From Escherichia coli O127:H6 str. E2348/69 (GTDB lineage Bacteria > Pseudomonadota > Gammaproteobacteria > Enterobacterales > Enterobacteriaceae): DNA of 64,000 nt. A program made the translations under genes and the position numbers. Under the pieces are notes generated by a model that saw only the letters and a list, made by a program, of their open reading frames with translations, made no database searches and had not been told where the DNA came from. The DNA lies in the NCBI RefSeq assembly GCF_000026545.1, contig NC_011601.1. The stretch is one strand, 5' to 3'. The number at the start of each line of letters is the position of its first letter. Position 1 is the stretch's first letter. Below are positions 38,815-49,155 of the stretch, in pieces.

Positions 38815-39063
38815 ATGGTAAATCGTGAAATAGTAATGGATTACATCCTTTCCTGTTTACAGGATTTGGTCGAAAACGGTGTGGAAATTAAGCCCGACAG
38901 CGATCTCGTCAACGATCTTGGCCTGGAGTCGATCAAAGTGATGGATCTCTTAATGATGCTGGAAGACAGATTCGATATTTCCATTCCTATTAATATTCTG
39001 CTGGATGTCAAAACCCCTGCGCAATTAATGGAAACTCTACTTCCATGGCTGGAGAATAAATAA
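38815..39063 (+). CDS. Acyl carrier protein (dedicated ACP)
   Basis: 82 aa with phosphopantetheine-attachment motif DLGLESIKVMDL; stop overlaps the next start (TAATG). Confidence 0.75.
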   Translation: MVNREIVMDYILSCLQDLVENGVEIKPDSDLVNDLGLESIKVMDLLMMLEDRFDISIPINILLDVKTPAQLMETLLPWLENK

Positions 39064-40235
39064 TGGGGCTATACGATAAATATGCGCGCCTTGCTGGCGA
39101 GCGCCTGCAATTTAGTGATAACGGGTTAACACCATTTGGCACCTGTATTGATGAAGTATATTCCGCCACCGAAGGCCGGATCGGCAATAAAAAAGTGATT
39201 CTGGCCGGGACCAATAATTATCTCGGTTTAACCTTTAATCATGATGCTATCCGCGAAGGTCAGGCAGCGTTAGCGGCCCAAGGCACTGGCACCACCGGTT
39301 CTCGTATGGCAAACGGCAGTTATGCGCCGCATCTGGCGTTAGAGAAAGAGATTGCCGAGTTTTTCAATCGCCCTACCGCTATCGTTTTTTCAACCGGTTA
39401 TACAGCTAATTTAGGCGTCATCAGCGCACTTGCCGACCATAACGCCGTGGTGTTACTGGATGCCGACAGCCACGCCAGTATTTATGACGCCTGTTCTCTC
39501 GGCGGCGCAGAGATTATTCGTTTCCGCCATAATGACGTCAACGATCTGGAACGGCGCATGGTCCGCCTCGGTGAACGGGCGAAAGAGGCGATTATTATCG
39601 TTGAAGGCATCTACAGTATGCTCGGTGACGTTGCGCCGCTGGCAGAAATTGTTGATATCAAACGTCGTCTCGGTGGTTATTTGATTGTCGATGAAGCACA
39701 TTCGTTTGGCGTGTTAGGCGTAACAGGCCGCGGACTGGTTGAAGCCGTTGGCGTTGAAGACGACGTGGATATTATCGTCGGCACCTTCAGTAAAAGTTTG
39801 GCTTCCATTGGTGGTTTTGCCGTGGGTTCAGAAGCGATGGAAGTGCTGCGCTACGGCAGCCGCCCGTATATTTTTACCGCCTCTCCTTCTCCGTCCTGCA
39901 TTGCGACCGTGCGCTCGTCGTTAAGAACCATTGCCACACAACCAGAGTTGCGGCAAAAACTGATGGATAACGCCAACCATCTGTATGACGGTCTGCAAAA
40001 ACTGGGTTACGAGTTAAGTTCACATATTAGCCCGGTAGTGCCAGTAATAATCGGTTCGAAAGAGGAAGGTTTACGCATCTGGCGCGAGCTTATTTCGCTG
40101 GGCGTTTATGTGAATCTTATCCTGCCACCTGCCGCGCCTGCAGGCATCACGCTGCTGCGCTGTAGCGTAAACGCTGCCCACAGTCGTGAGCAAATCGATG
40201 CCATCATTCAGGCATTTGCTACTCTGAAGCAGTAA
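39063..40235 (+). CDS. Alpha-oxoamine synthase-family PLP enzyme (serine palmitoyltransferase / BioF / Kbl-like)
   Basis: 390 aa with PLP-lysine motif GTFSKSLASIGGF and a glycine-rich N-terminal region; 1-nt overlap with the ACP stop. Confidence 0.8.
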   Translation: MGLYDKYARLAGERLQFSDNGLTPFGTCIDEVYSATEGRIGNKKVILAGTNNYLGLTFNHDAIREGQAALAAQGTGTTGSRMANGSYAPHLALEKEIAEFFNRPTAIVFSTGYTANLGVISALADHNAVVLLDADSHASIYDACSLGGAEIIRFRHNDVNDLERRMVRLGERAKEAIIIVEGIYSMLGDVAPLAEIVDIKRRLGGYLIVDEAHSFGVLGVTGRGLVEAVGVEDDVDIIVGTFSKSLASIGGFAVGSEAMEVLRYGSRPYIFTASPSPSCIATVRSSLRTIATQPELRQKLMDNANHLYDGLQKLGYELSSHISPVVPVIIGSKEEGLRIWRELISLGVYVNLILPPAAPAGITLLRCSVNAAHSREQIDAIIQAFATLKQ

Positions 40236-40269: not shown

Positions 40270-41349
40270 TTAATGTTGTCTGTCATGCCAATACACCAGG
40301 CTCAACGCCACCAGCACAAACGCTACCGGTAAACCGAGCGCGGTAACAGGTGCGCTCAACGCAAATAGCAATCCCAGATTGACCATGATTTGATAGCTGA
40401 TCCAGGTGAGTAAACCAACGATGACCCCTACAGCGAGACGGCTACCCATCCTAGGCGAGCGCGGGGCACTAAAGGTAAACGGCACAGCCAGCAAAATCAT
40501 CGCCAGAGTCAAGATGGGTTGCCCCAGTTTTTCCCACAGTGCAAGGCGGTATTCGCTGCTGGGTTGCCCGGTTTCCTGCAAATAATGGATGTAATGATTA
40601 AGCTGACGGACAGAAAAAGTATTTCCCGGCATCGATAACTCTTCAAGATTCATACTGGTGAAGGTCGATTGCCAGGCAAGATAATCAGATGTTTCCTGCG
40701 TTTCTTTGCCATTCAGCCATTTTTTATGATTCACACCATGCAGGATCCACGTTTTGTCATCTTCAATGGTGGCACTGCGCGCATAAATGTAGGATTCGAG
40801 CGAGAGATCATCGCGGTAATGAAATATCTCCACGTCCACCGGCTGGCCCTGCTCGTTCAGCGATTTCACCGTCACAAATTCATTACCACGCCTGGCCCAC
40901 AGCATATTGCCGGTAATGTCATCGTCCTCCCCCAACGCAGTGGCAGTCGATTTGATTTGCAGCGCCTGTTGCTGCAATGGCGACGCCACCCACTCATCTA
41001 TCGCGCCTAATGAAACAGTCCACAATATCCCGGCAACCAGCGCCACCAGTGCAATACGGAAGATAGAAAACCCCGTGCTGCGAATGGCGGTAAGCTCACT
41101 GTTTTTCGATAACTGCCCCAGGCCGACAATCCCTCCCAATAAGGCGATAAACGGCGAAAGTTCGACCAGTGTGCGCGGTAAGGTCATCAGCACCACCAGC
41201 ACCGCCTGAGTCCAGCGATAACCACCCGGGCTGACATCATCCAGTTCGTTAATCAGGTTGAAGGTGGTAAAAAGCGGCAGCAATAGCCCTGCGGCGGCGG
41301 CAAAACCGAGAAAGAGATGACGGATTAAATAGCGACTGAAAACATTCAT
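40270..41349 (-). CDS. LptG-like permease (YjgP/YjgQ family)
   Basis: About 359 aa from ATG 41349 (ATGA overlap with upstream gene); N-terminus MNVFSRYLIRHLFLGF resembles LptF/LptG-type permeases. Confidence 0.65.
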   Translation of the reverse strand: MNVFSRYLIRHLFLGFAAAAGLLLPLFTTFNLINELDDVSPGGYRWTQAVLVVLMTLPRTLVELSPFIALLGGIVGLGQLSKNSELTAIRSTGFSIFRIALVALVAGILWTVSLGAIDEWVASPLQQQALQIKSTATALGEDDDITGNMLWARRGNEFVTVKSLNEQGQPVDVEIFHYRDDLSLESYIYARSATIEDDKTWILHGVNHKKWLNGKETQETSDYLAWQSTFTSMNLEELSMPGNTFSVRQLNHYIHYLQETGQPSSEYRLALWEKLGQPILTLAMILLAVPFTFSAPRSPRMGSRLAVGVIVGLLTWISYQIMVNLGLLFALSAPVTALGLPVAFVLVALSLVYWHDRQH

Positions 41350-42416
41350 CGGGAAAATTTCTGCAGCAAAGAGAAGTCGCGTGCGACCAACATCAGCAGG
41401 CCCATTAGCATGAGTCCGGGTACTAACCACAAACCAGGAATGAGGGGAATCGCGCCGTTAGCCACCAGCGTACGGCAGACGTCGCCGCCATAAAAAATGG
41501 CAACAAACAGCAACGTCAGTGGCAATAACGTTGAAAATCGCCCTTGCCGCGGTTTTACCCGACTTAATGAAATGGCCAGCAGCGCCATCAACAATGCTGT
41601 CAGGCCACGGCTTTGTCGCCATTGCAGTTCGGCATGATCGGCAGGAAAGGCGGAGCGCGCCAGCTCCGTGACCGATTTTGCTTTGCGTTTGACGTTAGGG
41701 CTTTGATCCAGCGGATTCAGATGTAATTGCAGATTACGGTAGATCTGTTCGTTGTCGTCACGCCCCTGATGATCGAGAAGATAGGCGGTCCCGTTATGCA
41801 ACATAACGGTCGGTTTCTCAGGTGATGGGTCAACCACATCAACCGAACGGGCGCGGAAAATGCGGGTTCGATTAGCAGTAGAAGTATAAATCAGCGCGTC
41901 AGTCAGGCGATTATTATCCTGATCAACCGTCTGCGAAAGGATCATTCGTCCGTTATCGTTAGTGTTAAATTGCTTTGCCCGCAACTGGCGAACATCCAGC
42001 TCCGACTGTGACTGTTGCTCCAGTTGATAAATCTGCGCATAAGCCCACGGACGACCATACATCGACAGAAGGGTGACAAAAATACTTAGCGGTATCGCCA
42101 GATAAAGAACGGCTTTGTACAAGCGTCCCGGACTGCCCCCCGCCGCAGAGATAGCGGTAATTTCCGAGTCGGTATACATCTGCCCTAGCGTCACGCCAAC
42201 TGACACATACAGTCCAACAGGTAACAACATCTCCAGTGCAATCAGCACTTTGTAGAAAACGATATCCAGCACAACATCAAGAGCTAATGTCCCATTTGCC
42301 GCTTCGGTCAGATAACGCTGTGCGGAGTAGCTGGCGAAAATAAAGATCAGAAAACCGACGATAATCAGCACCAGACGGCGCGTACCACGCATGATGTAGT
42401 GTTCAACCAGCTTCAT
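41346..42416 (-). CDS. LptF-like permease (YjgP/YjgQ family)
   Basis: 356 aa, MKLVEHYIMRGTRRLVLIIVGFLIF...; paired with the LptG-like gene. Confidence 0.65.
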   Translation of the reverse strand: MKLVEHYIMRGTRRLVLIIVGFLIFIFASYSAQRYLTEAANGTLALDVVLDIVFYKVLIALEMLLPVGLYVSVGVTLGQMYTDSEITAISAAGGSPGRLYKAVLYLAIPLSIFVTLLSMYGRPWAYAQIYQLEQQSQSELDVRQLRAKQFNTNDNGRMILSQTVDQDNNRLTDALIYTSTANRTRIFRARSVDVVDPSPEKPTVMLHNGTAYLLDHQGRDDNEQIYRNLQLHLNPLDQSPNVKRKAKSVTELARSAFPADHAELQWRQSRGLTALLMALLAISLSRVKPRQGRFSTLLPLTLLFVAIFYGGDVCRTLVANGAIPLIPGLWLVPGLMLMGLLMLVARDFSLLQKFSR

Positions 42417-42445: not shown

Positions 42446-43009
42446 TTATTCATTGATCAGCTTCTGCGCCAGCGCAATGACATGATCTACCTCTTCCGGC
42501 GTCAGGCTGCCGTCCTTTGCCCACTGAATTTGCCCGGTTTTATTCAGCACCAGAATGGTTGAACTCTGCTCCTGCAAGTGCCAGGCAACGCGTCCCTGTC
42601 CATTGCCGTCAATAACGAATTGCGCCCATGGATAGCGGCGTTTATTTTTTTCGATTTTGCCAACGACAAAATAGCCGGTACCAAAGATGGCATCATCAGT
42701 GTTCACAATGGTGGTGGGCTGAAAACGATCCTGCGGAAAGTTTGCCGCTTCAACTGCTTTAATTAACAGTGAGTTCTTTTTCTTCGCCGACTTACGCCCG
42801 GCGATATACTGAATAATGCGAACTTTTCCTGCCAATTGGGTGCTGTTCCACTTTTGGTAGTGAATTTCGTCGTCGCTATTCCGAAGCAGCTCGCCGCCTT
42901 CCTGGATATAAACGGGGGTAACCGTTTTGCCAGTGACGAAATTGTGTGCCTGCACACCCGGGGCTAAGAGCATGATAATCAGCGCAATAATCAAACGAGA
43001 TGACATCAT
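42446..43009 (-). CDS. YtfJ-like periplasmic protein
   Basis: 187 aa with a signal peptide; conserved stretches (TTIVNTDDAI, QWAKDGSLTPEEV) closely resemble E. coli YtfJ as recalled from memory. Confidence 0.55.
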   Translation of the reverse strand: MMSSRLIIALIIMLLAPGVQAHNFVTGKTVTPVYIQEGGELLRNSDDEIHYQKWNSTQLAGKVRIIQYIAGRKSAKKKNSLLIKAVEAANFPQDRFQPTTIVNTDDAIFGTGYFVVGKIEKNKRRYPWAQFVIDGNGQGRVAWHLQEQSSTILVLNKTGQIQWAKDGSLTPEEVDHVIALAQKLINE

Positions 43010-43017
43010 TGCTCCGG

Positions 43018-43842
43018 TTATAGCGGAAAACGCGAAATCAGCAGTTCTAAGCGCTGGCGAATATCGCTATCCAGCGCCATCGGTGCATCATACGACTGGC
43101 GGTTTTCCATATCATCCGCCACCATGTCGTCGTGTTTATCCCCCATCAGGCCATTAATGGCGGCGAGGAAGCGGGAAATCTGTAACGCCTCTTTATTTTC
43201 AGGATCAAGCGATCTTAAGGTGTCGTAATAAGAAACCTGCTGGCTGATGATTTTTCGCACATCATGAAATTCCCTGCCAGTTAGTTGCGGTTTAGCAATA
43301 ATCTCTTTCAGGATGTACATTTGCTTCTGGCGGTAGGCGATAAAACCGTTCACGGTTTCTAACTGGCTATGGCGCAATGAATAGTTCACCAGCCACCAGA
43401 CAGGGGAGCTCAAATAAACACGTAACAGGTTACCGTAAAACGACACAATATTTTTCTTACCGTTACGAAAGCCATCCTGAAAATGCCCAAGAAAAACGGT
43501 CGTTTTGCCGAATAAAAATCCAGCCTGATGCTTCTTTAAATACAGCCGTTGCGCAAAACGCAGATGCTTGTAGCGCGCTCGCATGTATTTAAACTGTTTG
43601 CGCTCGTCTGTCGTCAGCTCATCGCCTTTCGCCTGTTTGCGGATTAAACGCAGTAACTCCTGACGATTAACACCATCCAGCCAGAATTTCAGGCATAACG
43701 CGTAATTATCATGGATGATTTCGGTGGTACAACTTAGTGCGATAGTCGGCGGCAAACTGACCTGTGCATCAACAACATCATCTTCTTCAATCGCAACAAA
43801 TAGACGCTCGCTCGCCTCAAGCGGGAAATATTTTCTCATCAT
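43018..43842 (-). CDS. Hypothetical protein (274 aa)
   Basis: ORF in operon context between yghQ and the YtfJ-like gene; no motif recognised by eye. Confidence 0.5.
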   Translation of the reverse strand: MMRKYFPLEASERLFVAIEEDDVVDAQVSLPPTIALSCTTEIIHDNYALCLKFWLDGVNRQELLRLIRKQAKGDELTTDERKQFKYMRARYKHLRFAQRLYLKKHQAGFLFGKTTVFLGHFQDGFRNGKKNIVSFYGNLLRVYLSSPVWWLVNYSLRHSQLETVNGFIAYRQKQMYILKEIIAKPQLTGREFHDVRKIISQQVSYYDTLRSLDPENKEALQISRFLAAINGLMGDKHDDMVADDMENRQSYDAPMALDSDIRQRLELLISRFPL

Positions 43843-45191
43843 CAGGATTTCTCTCCGGTTGAGTTATAAAGCAAGGAATGGCGCTGAAAAAATGCCTTTA
43901 AGGTCGGAATTAGCGAGAGCACCACATCCAGACATTGCCCACCGAAGTAAGCAAATGCAGCCCCCAGCACGCCAAACAGATGACAGAACATGAACAGCAA
44001 TACGATGTAGCCGATTGAGGCGATGGTTTGCGCCACGAGAAAAGCGCGCTGTTTTCCCGCCATCAATAGCAATGACTCCTGTGGGAAGCCCAGCATCGAA
44101 ATCACAATTGCGCCCAGCATCACCTGAATCAGGTCATACGCTTCGAGATACTTAACGCCAAACACCAGCGAAATGAGCGGCTTGCCGACGATCAACACCG
44201 CGAGCGCCACCAGAATACCGATTCCGCCCGCCAGTAAACCGGACTTCACGCCTAACAACCACGGTCTGGTGGTGCGTGGATCTAAACGCATCACCTCTGG
44301 ATAAAAACTTTTGCCCAGTAAACCCGCTGGCGTTCCGGCGGCATCGAAGAATGTCATGGCGATTTTAAATAACCCGACAGCAGCGGGTCCTAACACGATC
44401 CCCACCAACACTGTGCTGCACGAGTTACGCGCCGACCAGATGGAGTGGGCAATGTTGGTTGACCAGACAAAACTCCACGCGCCTTTAATGTGTCGGGCAG
44501 ACTCAAACAGATTCAATTTGAAGGCGTTATGGATATTTCTGCGGCGTAATTCGCGCGCGGCAAACCACCAGTACATGGTGCCGCCAACCAGATTCGACAC
44601 GTACCAGGCAATAACAAAACCCGCAAAACCAAAGTCAAAATACCAGGCTACGACGCTCCCCGCTGCGCGCAGAAAAGGTTTCGTCGCCTGCTGTACAGCA
44701 ATCAAATCAAAGCGATCTACCGCACGCAGAATGCCGGTCGGCGTGGAGGAAGCCATTGAAGGAATGAGCGTGCAATAGAGCGCCGCCAGCCAAAAGCTTT
44801 GGTCATCCAGACCTAATGAATGGGAAAGGAATGGCAGTAAGGCAATGCCGCCGACAATCGCCACCGCGCCGCTGACGATATCCAGCGAGAAGGAAAATGA
44901 GACAACATTGCGAAATTGCTGCGGATTATTGTTGGTCAAGGCCGGCGTTCCGTACTGGACCACCAGTTGCCATGTCTGAAACTTAATAAAATCGCTGATC
45001 GATTTGGCGTACGATTGCACAATTACCAGTACGCCAAACATGGCGGGCGTCATCCCTTTACCGGCACACGAGAGCGCCAACAGCCCCAGCAAAGCGCTCA
45101 CAACATTACTGGAGCCTAACCAGGCGCTATTGCGAATAATGGTGCGAAACGCGCCATCTGCAAACCAATGTTTGATGTTTAAACCCGCCAA
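43842..45191 (-). CDS. yghQ: YghQ, MOP-superfamily (Wzx/MurJ-like) polytopic flippase
   Basis: 449-aa multi-TM protein directly downstream of yghR; longer than my recollection of the K-12 product. Confidence 0.7.
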   Translation of the reverse strand: MAGLNIKHWFADGAFRTIIRNSAWLGSSNVVSALLGLLALSCAGKGMTPAMFGVLVIVQSYAKSISDFIKFQTWQLVVQYGTPALTNNNPQQFRNVVSFSFSLDIVSGAVAIVGGIALLPFLSHSLGLDDQSFWLAALYCTLIPSMASSTPTGILRAVDRFDLIAVQQATKPFLRAAGSVVAWYFDFGFAGFVIAWYVSNLVGGTMYWWFAARELRRRNIHNAFKLNLFESARHIKGAWSFVWSTNIAHSIWSARNSCSTVLVGIVLGPAAVGLFKIAMTFFDAAGTPAGLLGKSFYPEVMRLDPRTTRPWLLGVKSGLLAGGIGILVALAVLIVGKPLISLVFGVKYLEAYDLIQVMLGAIVISMLGFPQESLLLMAGKQRAFLVAQTIASIGYIVLLFMFCHLFGVLGAAFAYFGGQCLDVVLSLIPTLKAFFQRHSLLYNSTGEKS

Positions 45192-45236: not shown

Positions 45237-45995
45237 TTAAGTTAAACTTCGGCGGTCAGAAACGATGGCAACCAGAGAAACCGCCTTCTGTGCCTGTTCC
45301 AGCACCTCGCTGTAAGGCGCTCTGGAATCAATCTCAAGAATTTTTGTGCCGTTATAGCCAATCGTCGACATGACGCCGATTTTGTCCTGCAGCTCGGCAT
45401 AGTCATGGTCAGGCTTGCGGGAGATGGCAGTATCAATATCAATCCCCAAGCGAATGATTAATTCAGGACGGTATTGCGCCATTTGTTGGTATAAGCGCCG
45501 TTCGCGCTGCGCCAGAAACATGCTGATTTTCCCGGTCGCACGTTCGACGCCGATCCCCGGTCCGTCATAATAAAAGCCCGAAATTTCAGCCTGCGGGAAG
45601 CGATCGCTGACCACCAGAACGCCACTTTGCGCCAGTCGCTGAACCTTGCGCAGATTCGCCATTCTTCGCAGCGAGAAGCAGTACATAATCACCGCCGCCC
45701 ATAGCGCCGGAGATTTGGTTTTCATGCTTTGGGTTTTCGAGGATTTGGCCGCCAGTCGCCGTTCCAGCCAGACGCCAACCAACGGCAACCGTTTGATTTT
45801 GTCGCCGTCTTCGCCTGAGAGCAGCCCCAGATAGCGGCGCTCGGTTTGCCAGTGTTGTTGCAGCGATTTCACCAGGTCAGTGGTCAGTGTGGATTTACCG
45901 GTGCCATCACACCCGACCACCGCAATCAGCCCCGGAATGTAGTTGGGCTGCGGCGCGGTTGTACTCTTAACAGTTTGTGTTTGTAGTGCATCCAT
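45237..45995 (-). CDS. yghR: YghR, P-loop kinase-like protein (thymidylate-kinase-like fold)
   Basis: Walker A VGCDGTGKSTL plus DRF/Y motif (VVSDRFPQ). Confidence 0.75.
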   Translation of the reverse strand: MDALQTQTVKSTTAPQPNYIPGLIAVVGCDGTGKSTLTTDLVKSLQQHWQTERRYLGLLSGEDGDKIKRLPLVGVWLERRLAAKSSKTQSMKTKSPALWAAVIMYCFSLRRMANLRKVQRLAQSGVLVVSDRFPQAEISGFYYDGPGIGVERATGKISMFLAQRERRLYQQMAQYRPELIIRLGIDIDTAISRKPDHDYAELQDKIGVMSTIGYNGTKILEIDSRAPYSEVLEQAQKAVSLVAIVSDRRSLT

Positions 45996-46026
45996 TCGTT
46001 AAATCATCCCCTATCCATTTTGGTGA

Positions 46027-46740
46027 TCAGGAAAGCGCGGCGTGAATTGCGCGTAGTGACGCTTGCAGAATTTCATCGGCTGGTTGCCGACCATCCAGTT
46101 CAAGGATCTTTGCGCCATTGAATGTCAGTTGCGGCGTAACGGCGATTTTTTCCTGTAACGCTGCCAGTTGGTGGTCAGGTTTACGCGCAAACGCGGTTTG
46201 TTCATCAATGCCAAGACGAATCAACAATACGGGCAAATAAGACGCCATCCATTGGTACAGCTTCAGCTCGCGCTGCCTTAACATTTTTATCCAACCGTTA
46301 CCGCCCGTGGTTTTTGCCAATTGCGGGCCATCAAAGCGAAAACCCGGCACTTCAACCTGCGGGTAGCGGTCGGTGATGAGCAGATAGCCTTGCTGGCTTT
46401 TACACAACATTTTGCGAAACTTGTACGCCCGCCAGCAGGAAAGCAGATAGATAACCAGCGCAGTAATATTGCCAGGCGGTGTTAAGGGCTTTTCGTGCAC
46501 ATGTGCCGCTTTACTTCGCAAATAACGCCCAAAAGGTGCGCCAATAACAGGGAGCTGTGAAATCCATTCGCCAATTCGCCCGGACGATTGCCCGAGATAA
46601 ATGTGTTCTGTTGGCATTCTTGATGCCAGTTCATTTACCAGGCTTGCCGTGAGGGTCGATTTACCTGAACCATCACATCCTACAATGGCAATAACACGCA
46701 CTGGCGTGGAATTAATTATTGACATATTACGTTGATTCAC
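46027..46740 (-). CDS. yghS: YghS, P-loop kinase-like protein, paralog of YghR/YghT
   Basis: Walker A VGCDGSGKSTL plus LITDRYPQ. Confidence 0.75.
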   Translation of the reverse strand: MNQRNMSIINSTPVRVIAIVGCDGSGKSTLTASLVNELASRMPTEHIYLGQSSGRIGEWISQLPVIGAPFGRYLRSKAAHVHEKPLTPPGNITALVIYLLSCWRAYKFRKMLCKSQQGYLLITDRYPQVEVPGFRFDGPQLAKTTGGNGWIKMLRQRELKLYQWMASYLPVLLIRLGIDEQTAFARKPDHQLAALQEKIAVTPQLTFNGAKILELDGRQPADEILQASLRAIHAALS

Positions 46741-46914
46741 GAAAAACCCGGCAGCAAATAATGTATTGAATATTACGTGGTCCGTGCTCAGAATATCCGT
46801 TCAACCTTATTGTGACAATGGTTAATTGTGACATTGACCTGAATTACGCTTTCATCAAAAACATATTAACCAAATAAATATTTTGGATGGACATTTAAAT
46901 TTAAGGATATATTC

Positions 46915-47607
46915 ATGCAGTCAATAATACCTCCATTAATTGCCGTTATTGGTAGCGATGGTTCAGGCAAGTCAACGGTGTGTGAACATCTTATTACCGT
47001 TGTCGAAAAATATGGTGCTGCCGAAAGGGTTCATTTAGGAAAACAGGCCGGAAATGTCGGTCGTGCAGTGACAAAATTACCGTTGATGGGAAAATCCTTA
47101 CATAAAACAATTGAACGAAATCAGGTAAAAATAGCAAAAAAATTGCCGGGACCAGTTCCGGCGCTGGTAATTACAGCGTTTGTCGCCCGCCGCTTACTGC
47201 GCTTTCGTCATATGCTTGCCTGTCGTCGTCGCGGGTTAATTGTTTTAACCGACCGTTATCCGCAGGAACAGATTCCTGGCGCTTATGATGGTACGGTGTT
47301 CCCGCCTAACGTTGAAGGTGGTCGTTTTGTCTCATGGCTGGCAAGTCAGGAACGTAAAGCATTTCACTGGATGGCGAGCCATAAGCCCGATCTGGTCATC
47401 AAACTCAATGTCGATCTGGACGTAGCCTGCGCGCGTAAGCCTGACCACAAAAGAGAATCGCTGGAAAGGAAGATAGCAATAACGCCACAGTTAACCTTTG
47501 GAGGCGCGCAACTGGTTGATATCGATGCCAATCAACCGCTGGAACAAGTGCTGGTTGATGCGGAAAAAGCGATTACGGATTTTATGACCGCGCGTGGTTA
47601 TCACTAG
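46915..47607 (+). CDS. yghT: YghT, P-loop kinase-like protein, paralog of YghR/YghS
   Basis: Walker [12 protein letters not shown] plus LTDRYPQ; ATG with an AAGGA ribosome-binding site upstream. Confidence 0.75.
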
Positions 47608-47617
47608 TCAAAAATGG

Positions 47618-47648
47618 AAATGCCCGATCGCCAGGACCGGGCATTTTC
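47618..47648. terminator. Bidirectional intrinsic terminator shared by yghT and pitB
   Basis: Stem AAATGCCCG / CGGGCATTT with an 11-nt loop, flanked by an A-run upstream and a T-run downstream. Confidence 0.5.
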
Positions 47649-47655
47649 AGGAAGG

Positions 47656-49155
47656 TTAAATCAACTGCAATGCTATCCAGTACAACCCACCAGAAAGAAA
47701 AATCGCCGCCGGTAAAGTAAATACCCACGCCATCAGGATGCTGGTTACCGTTTTACGCTGTAACCCACCGCCGTCCACCACCATCGTCCCTGCTACTGCA
47801 GACGAGAGTACGTGTGTTGTGGAGACGGGCATCCCAATATAACTGGCAAGGCCGATAGACACTGCCGCCGTCATCTGTGCCGCCATGCCTTGCGCATACG
47901 TCATGCCGCGCTTACCAATCTTCTCACCGATGGTCATCGCTACACGACGCCAGCCAATCATGGTGCCGATGCCGAGCGCCAGTGCTACCGCCATGATGAT
48001 CCATACCGGTGCGTACTCAATGGTGCTTAACATATCGCTGCGCAGTTTTTTCAGCAGGTTCTGGTCTTCTTTACTGACGCCTGGCAGTTTCGCCAGCTTC
48101 GCGGAGGTATCAGAGATGCACAGCATAATGCGGCGCAGCTGGCTGCGCTGACTCACGCTTAACGGCTCGTAACTTTCCATATTGCCTGGCAGCATCGTTT
48201 TAACGCGCGCAATCGCATCAAAGGTATTTGCCGGATGACAGTGAAACTCTGTTACTTGCGTGCCATCAGTCGATGTCGCAGGCAATGGAGGTTCCATCGT
48301 AATCAACTTCTGCGGCAGTTCAGGATGCTGTTGCAGGTAGTGTTCGAAGTTGGTGACGGCATCGCGGGTACGGGTAATTTCATAGCCGGACGCATTCATA
48401 TTGACGACAAACCCGGCGGGAGCAATCCCCACCAGCACCAGCATCACCAGACCAATTCCTTTCTGCCCGTCGTTCGCGCCGTGCGAAAACGCCACGCCCG
48501 CAGCGGAAACAATGAGGGCAATACGCGTCCAGAATGGCGGCTTACGTTTGCCTTTTTTCTTTTGGCGATCTTCCGGAATGCGGTGAATACGGTCACGCTT
48601 TTTCGTCCCGCTCCAGTAGCGACGCAGCAGAAAAATCAGCCCCCCCGCAATCACCAGCCCCACGATGGGGGAGACAATGAGTGAAGAGAAAATCTTGGTG
48701 ACTTCGCGCAGGTTTAACGCATCCATCACCGACGAACCATTTAACAGCGCGTTGGTTAAACCGATGCCGATAATCGCACCAATCAAAGTGTGCGAACTGG
48801 AGGCCGGTAAACCAAAGAACCACGTTCCCAGATTCCAGATAATCGCCGCCAGCAGCATGGAAAAGACCATCGCCAGACCGTGAGTTGACCCCATATTCAG
48901 CAACAAATCGGTTGGCAACATATGGACGATGGCATAGGCAACGCTAAGCCCGCCAAGCAATACGCCAAAAAAGTTAAAAAATGCCGCCATGACTACAGCA
49001 AGCTGTGGTTGCATGGCACGGGTATAAATAACGGTTGCCACCGCATTCGCTGTGTCATGAAAACCATTGATTGCTTCATAGAACAACACAAATGCCAGAG
49101 CAAGTAATAACAAAAGCCCCGTATATATATCAAGGCCAACAAATAAATTTAGCAT
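47656..49155 (-). CDS. pitB: Low-affinity inorganic phosphate transporter
   Basis: 499-aa PiT-family transporter with [15 protein letters not shown] motif; pitB rather than pitA by genomic context. Confidence 0.85.

Follow-up and report, generated by a model that had tools for sequence, protein, structure and literature searches.

The yghR, yghS and yghT genes of E. coli E2348/69

We analyzed a 64,000-nucleotide stretch of the genome of Escherichia coli O127:H6 str. E2348/69 (contig NC_011601.1), hereafter called the window, with respect to three of its genes, yghR, yghS and yghT, which encode P-loop proteins beside a sphingolipid locus and may provide the kinases that act on the lipid head group. 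A preliminary description, made from the sequence alone, had introduced them as three tandem P-loop paralogs. The paralogs are found where it had placed them, whereas the tandem arrangement holds for yghS and yghR only; yghT is transcribed divergently from yghS-yghR-yghQ, as the body of that description had correctly stated together with the 174-bp length of the region in between. The RefSeq record of E2348/69 annotates the same three genes.

45237-45995, minus strand: yghR, 252 amino acids, predicted thymidylate-kinase-fold P-loop phosphotransferase, ortholog group R, second gene of the tandem pair
46027-46740, minus strand: yghS, 237 amino acids, predicted thymidylate-kinase-fold P-loop phosphotransferase, ortholog group S, first gene of the tandem pair
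46741-46914, no strand: divergent intergenic region between yghS and yghT, 174 bp, AT-rich (GC about 0.40)
46915-47607, plus strand: yghT, 230 amino acids, predicted thymidylate-kinase-fold P-loop phosphotransferase, ortholog group T, divergently transcribed

The Walker A and DR(F/Y)PQ motifs described earlier are present as quoted: Walker A reads GCDGTGKST in YghR, GCDGSGKST in YghS and GSDGSGKST in YghT, and the second motif reads DRFPQ in YghR and DRYPQ in both YghS and YghT. RKPDH, which the preliminary description did not list, is a third invariant motif common to the three proteins. In the three-protein alignment, which has 55 invariant columns, YghS and YghT are 41% and 34% identical to YghR, and judged by their sequences the likeness is true paralogy and not chance. 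Neither the ABC signature ([LFYV]SGG[QEKM]), which had already been reported as lacking, nor a GGDG motif occurs in YghR, YghS or YghT. No transmembrane segment was detected in any of them (the highest Kyte-Doolittle mean over 19 residues is 1.35), and the whole-protein pI values are 9.6-9.8.

A promoter scan of the spacer between yghS and yghT gave one sigma-70-like site, on the minus strand from 46818 to 46790, and the number of sites in these 174 bp was not above that in shuffled sequence. An FlhDC gSELEX peak lies within the spacer (PMC9962212), and overexpression of SlyA increased yghS 3.1-fold, yghS being also flagged in the regulon-overlap column of that study (PMC5797941). Beyond yghT and convergent with it lies pitB, encoding the low-affinity phosphate transporter (47656-49155, minus strand), and a hairpin with a 12-bp stem (47618-47646) separates the two genes. 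The adjacency of pitB to the kinase trio is probably not functional, because it is confined to Escherichia, Citrobacter, Hafnia and Pseudocitrobacter (10 loci).

Predicted fold and family

A Pfam search with YghS returned nothing at E <= 0.001, the Thymidylate_kin model not being significant, and a single-sequence phmmer search of the PDB gave P-loop matches only. The NCBIfam model TIGR00041 scored 30.9, 25.1 and 24.6 bits, against a curated cut-off of 83.25. The NCBIfam models for deoxythymidine monophosphate (dTMP) kinase cover residues 8-185 of YghT at 24.7 bits, and the ABC models in the same collection align with the P-loop only, over about 25 residues. We also searched 1.84 billion representative proteins with a profile and built a 53-sequence alignment from the 2156 matches.

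Using this alignment, AlphaFold2 produced a model of YghS with a pLDDT of 89.1 and a pTM of 0.85. The preliminary description had likened the proteins to the thymidylate or nucleoside-monophosphate (NMP) kinase fold and had proposed structure prediction followed by a Foldseek comparison. The Foldseek search agrees with that suggestion, its best fold matches being thymidylate kinases, and upon superposition the model has a three-layer alpha/beta fold matching solved kinases; 5h70 and 2plr, the solved homolog of the catalytic subunit of the polyphosphate kinase PPK3, are among the best structural matches. The family profile points in the same direction. It matches solved thymidylate kinases at E = 6e-11 in three collinear segments, one at the P-loop, one at the DRY motif and one spanning strand 4 and the LID, and it matches 2plr at 3.6e-5 over the P-loop only. 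In the profile alignment, DR[FY]PQ and A..RKPDH align with the DRY motif and the LID of thymidylate kinases, respectively. According to the profile and the predicted structure, YghR, YghS and YghT are a divergent branch of the thymidylate-kinase superfamily.

Kinase fold and absent signature exclude an ABC or transport ATPase, and a diacylglycerol-kinase (DAGK)-type lipid kinase such as CpgB, YegS or CERK was rejected for lack of the GGDG motif and for its different fold. An anti-phage defense system was likewise rejected, since PADLOC gave matches of P-loop length only, with E of 2e-4 or weaker.

The dTMP-binding site looks different from that of a canonical thymidylate kinase. When the profile is aligned with PfTMPK, in a low-scoring hidden Markov model (HMM) alignment that is not a structural superposition, FPNRE corresponds to LGkgsG and the thymine-stacking Phe to Leu, and the glycine-rich loop LGxxSGxxG sits at the base-binding FPxR position. 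R104 (YghS numbering) aligns with the phosphate-binding Arg and is the sole dTMP-site residue kept, again in this low-scoring alignment. In thymidylate kinases that Arg binds the phosphate of dTMP, and FPxR and the Phe serve base binding. In addition, the P-loop and the DR motif are separated by an acceptor-side insert, about 90 residues long and with a net charge of +7 to +14, which contains a long helix (residues 91-116).

The best fold matches, and the PGAP product names of yghS and yghT ('dTMP kinase' and 'nucleoside/nucleotide kinase family protein'), would suit true dTMP or nucleotide kinases with a salvage role unrelated to the neighboring genes. We consider this highly improbable. Compared with canonical Tmk (TIGR00041/PF02223), the three proteins score far below the family cut-off, have the base-binding motifs replaced and carry the basic insert, and they fall into three conserved groups of paralogs whose synteny with lipid genes is fixed, as described below; moreover, E. 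coli has a separate, essential tmk.

Three ortholog groups and conservation of the active site

We compared 86 loci, 80 of them from a one-genome-per-species collection and 6 from assemblies. Two to four adjacent thymidylate-kinase-fold paralogs are present in almost every locus, and 49 of 82 loci have three cleanly called kinase open reading frames (ORFs) in the order (-)(+)(+) as in E. coli. Gene position agreed with the best-hit label in all 49 of these, and a neighbor-joining tree of 144 sequences resolved into three pure clades, R, S and T. It seems from these sequences that YghR, YghS and YghT represent three anciently diverged orthologous groups.

Conservation was assessed with non-identical sequences (70 for R, 70 for S and 72 for T). 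Invariant in all three groups are the G, D, G, G and K of Walker A (the next residue being S or T), D124-R125, D137, E158, R186-K187 and D189-H190. P127 is invariant in group R; groups R and S keep R104 and Q128 throughout, and 70 and 68, respectively, of the 72 T sequences have these residues. Because the catalytic motifs are conserved in each group, none of the groups looks like a pseudo-enzyme, and all three probably consist of catalytically competent enzymes.

This conservation bears on the possibility that the proteins are non-catalytic or regulatory NTP binders, which would regulate flux through the neighboring serine palmitoyltransferase Spt or energize the neighboring flippase YghQ or exporter LptF2G2. 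The annotation of YghRST in K-12, 'putative ATP-binding protein', fits such a role, as does the lack of a dedicated ATPase for LptF2G2 in the locus. We nevertheless regard it as very unlikely: the proteins have an NMP-kinase fold rather than that of an ABC ATPase, the DR motif, the Arg-Lys of the LID and D137/E158 are invariant as expected for enzymes rather than switches, and MOP flippases are not driven by ATP.

Natural fusions join S to R (P0121) and T to R (P0122), which suggests that the paralogs act as a complex. Single-chain fusions of the YghS-YghR and YghT-YghR-like types, 492-510 amino acids in length, occur in Betaproteobacteria and metagenomes, including Candidatus Nitrotoga (L055, L060).

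The sphingolipid locus and its CHAD-fold protein

At lower coordinates in the window, yghQ lies directly downstream of yghR, and beyond it are further genes, on both strands, several of them for lipid synthesis and export.

43842-45191, minus strand: yghQ, MOP-family (Wzx-like) flippase by a weak NCBIfam MOP flippase match, directly downstream of yghR
43018-43842, minus strand: predicted CHAD-fold protein of 274 amino acids, annotated 'hypothetical protein', its start overlapping the yghQ stop
42446-43009, minus strand: YtfJ-family periplasmic protein (TIGR01626, 212 bits), found in 38 of 86 loci, all Enterobacterales-like
41346-42416, minus strand: lptF2, LptF paralog and sphingolipid export candidate (annotation)
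40270-41349, minus strand: lptG2, LptG paralog (annotation)
39063-40235, plus strand: spt, serine palmitoyltransferase (ORF and annotation; the E. coli B enzyme is characterized, PMC9386255)
38815-39063, plus strand: acpR, specialized acyl carrier protein (annotation; PMC9386255)
37869-38783, plus strand: cerR/epi, NAD-dependent reductase of ceramide synthesis (annotation; PMC9386255)
36148-37872, plus strand: aasR, acyl-AcpR synthetase (annotation; PMC9386255)
34644-35786, minus strand: yghO, acyl-CoA N-acyltransferase homolog and candidate bacterial ceramide synthase (annotation; homolog of CC_1154, PMC9386255)

The genes yghO, aasR, cerR, acpR and spt make up the dihydroceramide set described for E. 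coli B and Caulobacter (PMC9386255), and the Caulobacter paralogs LptF2/G2 are required for sphingolipid transport (bioRxiv 10.64898/2026.04.12.717747). The longest lptG2 ORF (40270-41430, GTG start) overlaps lptF2 by 85 bp; the RefSeq start at 41349 gives the usual 4-bp overlap.

Searches of Pfam and NCBIfam and a profile search of the PDB with the 274-residue 'hypothetical' neighbor returned nothing useful. Its predicted structure is all-alpha, with the conserved His and basic residues of the CHAD family, and by this model the protein has a CHAD fold. CHAD domains bind inorganic polyphosphate (bioRxiv 10.1101/567040). The spacing between the CHAD-fold gene and yghQ is -4, -1 or 0 in 27 of 33 loci, indicating translational coupling. 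Apparent YghQ-CHAD fusions in two loci (L063, L081) were discarded because the ORFs had been called too long in high-GC DNA. Luteibacter and one gammaproteobacterial metagenome-assembled genome have the CHAD-fold gene in duplicate within the locus (L048 18016-19716; L053 5501-6286 and 7839-8678).

Conserved context across Proteobacteria

Among the 86 loci, spt lies within 10 kb of the kinases in 56, yghQ in 65, the CHAD-fold gene in 60 and lptF2/G2 in 39. The same locus organization is seen in Serratia, Pantoea, Erwinia, Citrobacter and many environmental Proteobacteria, and in Serratia and Carnimonas the kinase trio directly abuts spt. The association extends beyond the Enterobacterales: of 46 such loci, from Xanthomonadales, Betaproteobacteria, Oceanospirillales and assorted metagenome-assembled genomes, 37 contain yghQ or the CHAD-fold gene and 24 contain a ceramide gene or lptF2/G2. 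Recurrent neighbors are DgkA-like small kinases (18 loci), LpxO-like Asp/Arg hydroxylases (18), PAP2 phosphatases (15 and 8), DAGK_cat kinases (6) and LptA/C-like proteins (5). As far as their families tell, these all have envelope-lipid functions, several of them handling lipid phosphates. On this comparative evidence, YghRST, YghQ and the CHAD-fold protein appear to be a conserved accessory module of the proteobacterial sphingolipid locus.

The DgkA-like (DAGK_prokar) paralog lies in or beside the locus in Serratia, Carnimonas, Pantoea, Erwinia, Rosenbergiella and others (L002 2279-2644; L004 12404-12730; 16 more), and is, like the DAGK_cat kinases, a candidate ceramide kinase; no DgkA-like paralog is present in the E. 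coli window. Outside Enterobacterales, two families of PAP2-type phosphatases adjoin the kinase trio (L058 7562-8125, L054 1515-2198 and about 20 more), one of which has a signal-peptide-like N-terminus.

In Caulobacter, Cpg genes build a ceramide phosphoglycerate head group (PMC11324152). CpgA-D are head-group genes within the spt/cerS/lptF2G2 locus and make an anionic sphingolipid (PMC11324152; 10.1101/2023.05.01.538943), and the kinases occupy a comparable position. Unlike YghRST, however, the ceramide kinase CpgB lacks a P-loop and is of the DAGK type, having a GGDG motif (10.1101/2023.05.01.538943), and homology between YghRST and CpgB was therefore rejected; nor is a P-loop kinase among the Caulobacter cluster genes whose predicted functions (PMC11324152) were compared. 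The two sets are not simply interchangeable. An alphaproteobacterium-like contig (L005) carries two of the kinases, YghQ (49% identity), a CHAD-fold homolog, a PMT_2 protein and a DAGK_cat kinase, that is, a DAGK_cat gene together with the kinase/YghQ/CHAD module; its nucleotidyltransferase-like gene may be Tam41/CpgC-like. Homologs of the CpgB-like and CpgC-like genes of this contig were not found in the 64-kb window, and the RefSeq annotation of the E. coli locus includes neither a glycosyltransferase nor another head-group enzyme. Since these are absent, the YghRST/YghQ/CHAD module is the only head-group candidate in the E. coli locus.

The closest precedent for such a set of genes is PPK3 of Sulfolobus acidocaldarius (Saci_2019/Saci_2020), whose two thymidylate-kinase-like paralogs share an operon with the gene for a CHAD protein (PMC12995831). 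As in PPK3, the paralogs here are adjacent, are accompanied by a CHAD-type protein, have lost the dTMP-binding residues and have a positive acceptor side; hetero-oligomer formation, also a property of PPK3, is suggested for YghRST only by the S-R and T-R fusions. These features, above all the CHAD-fold neighbor, the multiple adjacent paralogs and the basic acceptor side, could mean that YghRST is a PPK3-like heteromeric polyphosphate kinase, interconverting ATP/ADP and inorganic polyphosphate, whose polymer is bound by the CHAD-fold protein, with polyphosphate serving as a donor or with the sphingolipid link being an indirect one of phosphate or energy supply. We think this unlikely, and membership in PPK3 is not supported, because the Arg of the DRX motif is kept, PPX and SixA do not recur as neighbors, the profile is nearer to canonical thymidylate kinases and the genes lie in a lipid context. 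That Arg (R125) is invariant in R (70/70), S (70/70) and T (72/72), unlike in the regulatory PPK3 subunit, which lacks it (PMC12995831). PPK3 has two paralogs, YghRST three, none of which resembles the inactive regulatory subunit, and the family has no specific sequence affinity to 2plr. PPX, SixA and Pst are not among the recurrent neighbors, which are spt, yghQ, lptF2/G2, PAP2 and DgkA-like genes, placing the kinases in a sphingolipid/flippase/Lpt locus. E. coli, in addition, already has PPK1.

Fusions in the wider kinase family

Many distant relatives are proteins of about 500 amino acids in which an N-terminal nucleotidyltransferase-like domain (DLDLLVD) precedes a YghRST-like one (P0165, P0169, P0176 and others). 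P0217 joins a Polysacc_synt_3 flippase, NTP_transf_5 and the kinase domain, and in P0251 the kinase domain is fused to a GT4 glycosyltransferase. Of three distant members examined, P0169 and P0251 are encoded in Wzx/Wzy-type polysaccharide loci, next to a flippase, and P0165 is not. Because of these domain fusions and loci, the wider family appears to be tied to the assembly of lipid-linked surface glycoconjugates and to MOP flippases. The locus of one fusion gene (L088, gene 7223-8731) also contains sulfate-activation and sulfotransferase genes. Small P-loop genes downstream of the fusion proteins of about 500 amino acids were considered as YghRST paralogs and rejected by BLAST.

The NTP_transf_5-like fusions suggest a route in which a kinase step is followed by nucleotidylyl activation, so that YghRST might phosphorylate a soluble head-group precursor (a sugar, glycerate or alcohol phosphate) that is later moved to ceramide. 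The fold family does act on soluble substrates (NMPs, nucleosides, gluconate, shikimate), and the proteins have no membrane segment. On the other hand, the E. coli locus has no transferase or glycosyltransferase that could attach the precursor to ceramide, and the flippase fusion and the translational coupling of yghQ with the CHAD-fold gene point to action at the membrane. We judge a soluble precursor to be unlikely.

A candidate head-group phosphorylation module

Our preferred reading, to which we assign a probability of about 0.5, is that YghRST form the head-group phosphorylation module of an enterobacterial-type sphingolipid pathway. It starts from what was observed (a thymidylate-kinase-type fold with its catalytic motifs intact, three orthologous groups, conserved synteny and natural fusions), and from this we infer an acceptor, its lipid nature, an order of steps and a hetero-oligomer. 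The preliminary description had named lipid head-group phosphorylation among several possible roles, and a head-group kinase is indeed the functional reading best supported by fold, synteny and fusions, although the function itself is reached by inference.

In this pathway, YghO, AasR, CerR, AcpR and Spt would synthesize ceramide on the cytoplasmic side of the inner membrane. Phosphorylation of an anionic sphingolipid head group or its immediate precursor with ATP would follow, carried out by the three basic kinases, which are soluble or peripheral and would probably be assembled as a hetero-oligomer. The product would then be flipped by YghQ and exported by LptF2G2. The acceptor would most likely be already phosphorylated, for example ceramide-1-phosphate, because phosphate is the normal acceptor of the NMP-kinase fold, the phosphate-binding Arg is kept, the glycine-rich loop LGxxSGxxG takes the place of the base-binding segment, the insert is basic, the partner has a CHAD fold and many loci have separate candidate ceramide kinases. 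A precedent is LpxK, a P-loop kinase that phosphorylates an envelope lipid, lipid A, at its 4' position on the cytoplasmic side, ahead of flipping and export by the Lpt system.

Several points weigh against this assignment. A lipid acceptor would be out of the ordinary for the thymidylate-kinase fold, whose enzymes mostly use soluble nucleotides. The E. coli locus may be poorly expressed, and the searchable literature yielded no native E. coli sphingolipid. The 80 search-derived loci are the best-scoring relatives, and the co-occurrence counts are biased toward close relatives for that reason; 22 of the 46 non-enteric loci, many of them short contigs, have no ceramide or Lpt gene within 10 kb. 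Finally, about 11% of complete E. coli genomes, including K-12, have yghRST without the spt block, which could reflect an independent function or merely a recent deletion.

Of 5426 complete E. coli genomes, 4784 have the yghRST region and 4168 (77%) have the aasR-spt block. In K-12 MG1655 (NC_000913.3 3129043-3132408, L093), IS5 (insH9) lies between yghO and a truncated yghQ (355 versus 449 amino acids), and the block of about 9 kb that extends from aasR to the CHAD-fold gene, and includes spt, lptG2, lptF2 and ytfJ, is missing. The K-12 kinases are thus orphaned, which would plausibly account for their label as putative ATP-binding proteins and for the absence of phenotypes in K-12 screens.

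A more specific possibility, which we hold only tentatively and judge to be unlikely, is that the module builds a lipid-anchored oligophosphate, that is, ceramide di-, tri- or oligophosphate. Ceramide-1-phosphate would come from DgkA or from the DgkA-like or DAGK_cat kinases found in many loci. YghS, YghR and YghT, as NMP-kinase-like enzymes whose acceptor is itself a phosphate, would extend it stepwise, with the lengthening chain held by the CHAD-fold protein. Flipping would be done by YghQ, as it is by other MOP flippases for cargo linked to lipid pyrophosphate, LptF2G2 would carry the product to the outer membrane, and PAP2 phosphatases would trim it in some taxa. A literature search for ceramide and pyrophosphate with E. 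coli, serine palmitoyltransferase and outer membrane found only an unrelated yeast paper. Such a product, if made, would represent a class of polyanionic outer-membrane lipid not described before, and about three quarters of E. coli genomes would encode it.

The three genes and the adjacent sphingolipid locus were already known. New here are the three-way orthology, the kinase/YghQ/CHAD-fold module, the CHAD-fold assignment and the parallel with PPK3; the searchable literature contained no link of yghR, yghS, yghT or any thymidylate-kinase-like protein to sphingolipids. With head-group phosphorylation as their role, three E. coli genes without a function would gain a concrete assignment, supplying the head-group enzymes that the enterobacterial-type sphingolipid pathway lacks so far. 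The analysis also corrects the product name 'dTMP kinase' given in RefSeq and extends the PPK3-type pairing of thymidylate-kinase paralogs with a CHAD protein to a lipid context. Anionic sphingolipids of Caulobacter are required for survival upon loss of lipid A and influence virulence, detergent resistance and sensitivity to polymyxin. An equivalent lipid in pathogenic E. coli would matter to envelope biology and to antibiotic action.

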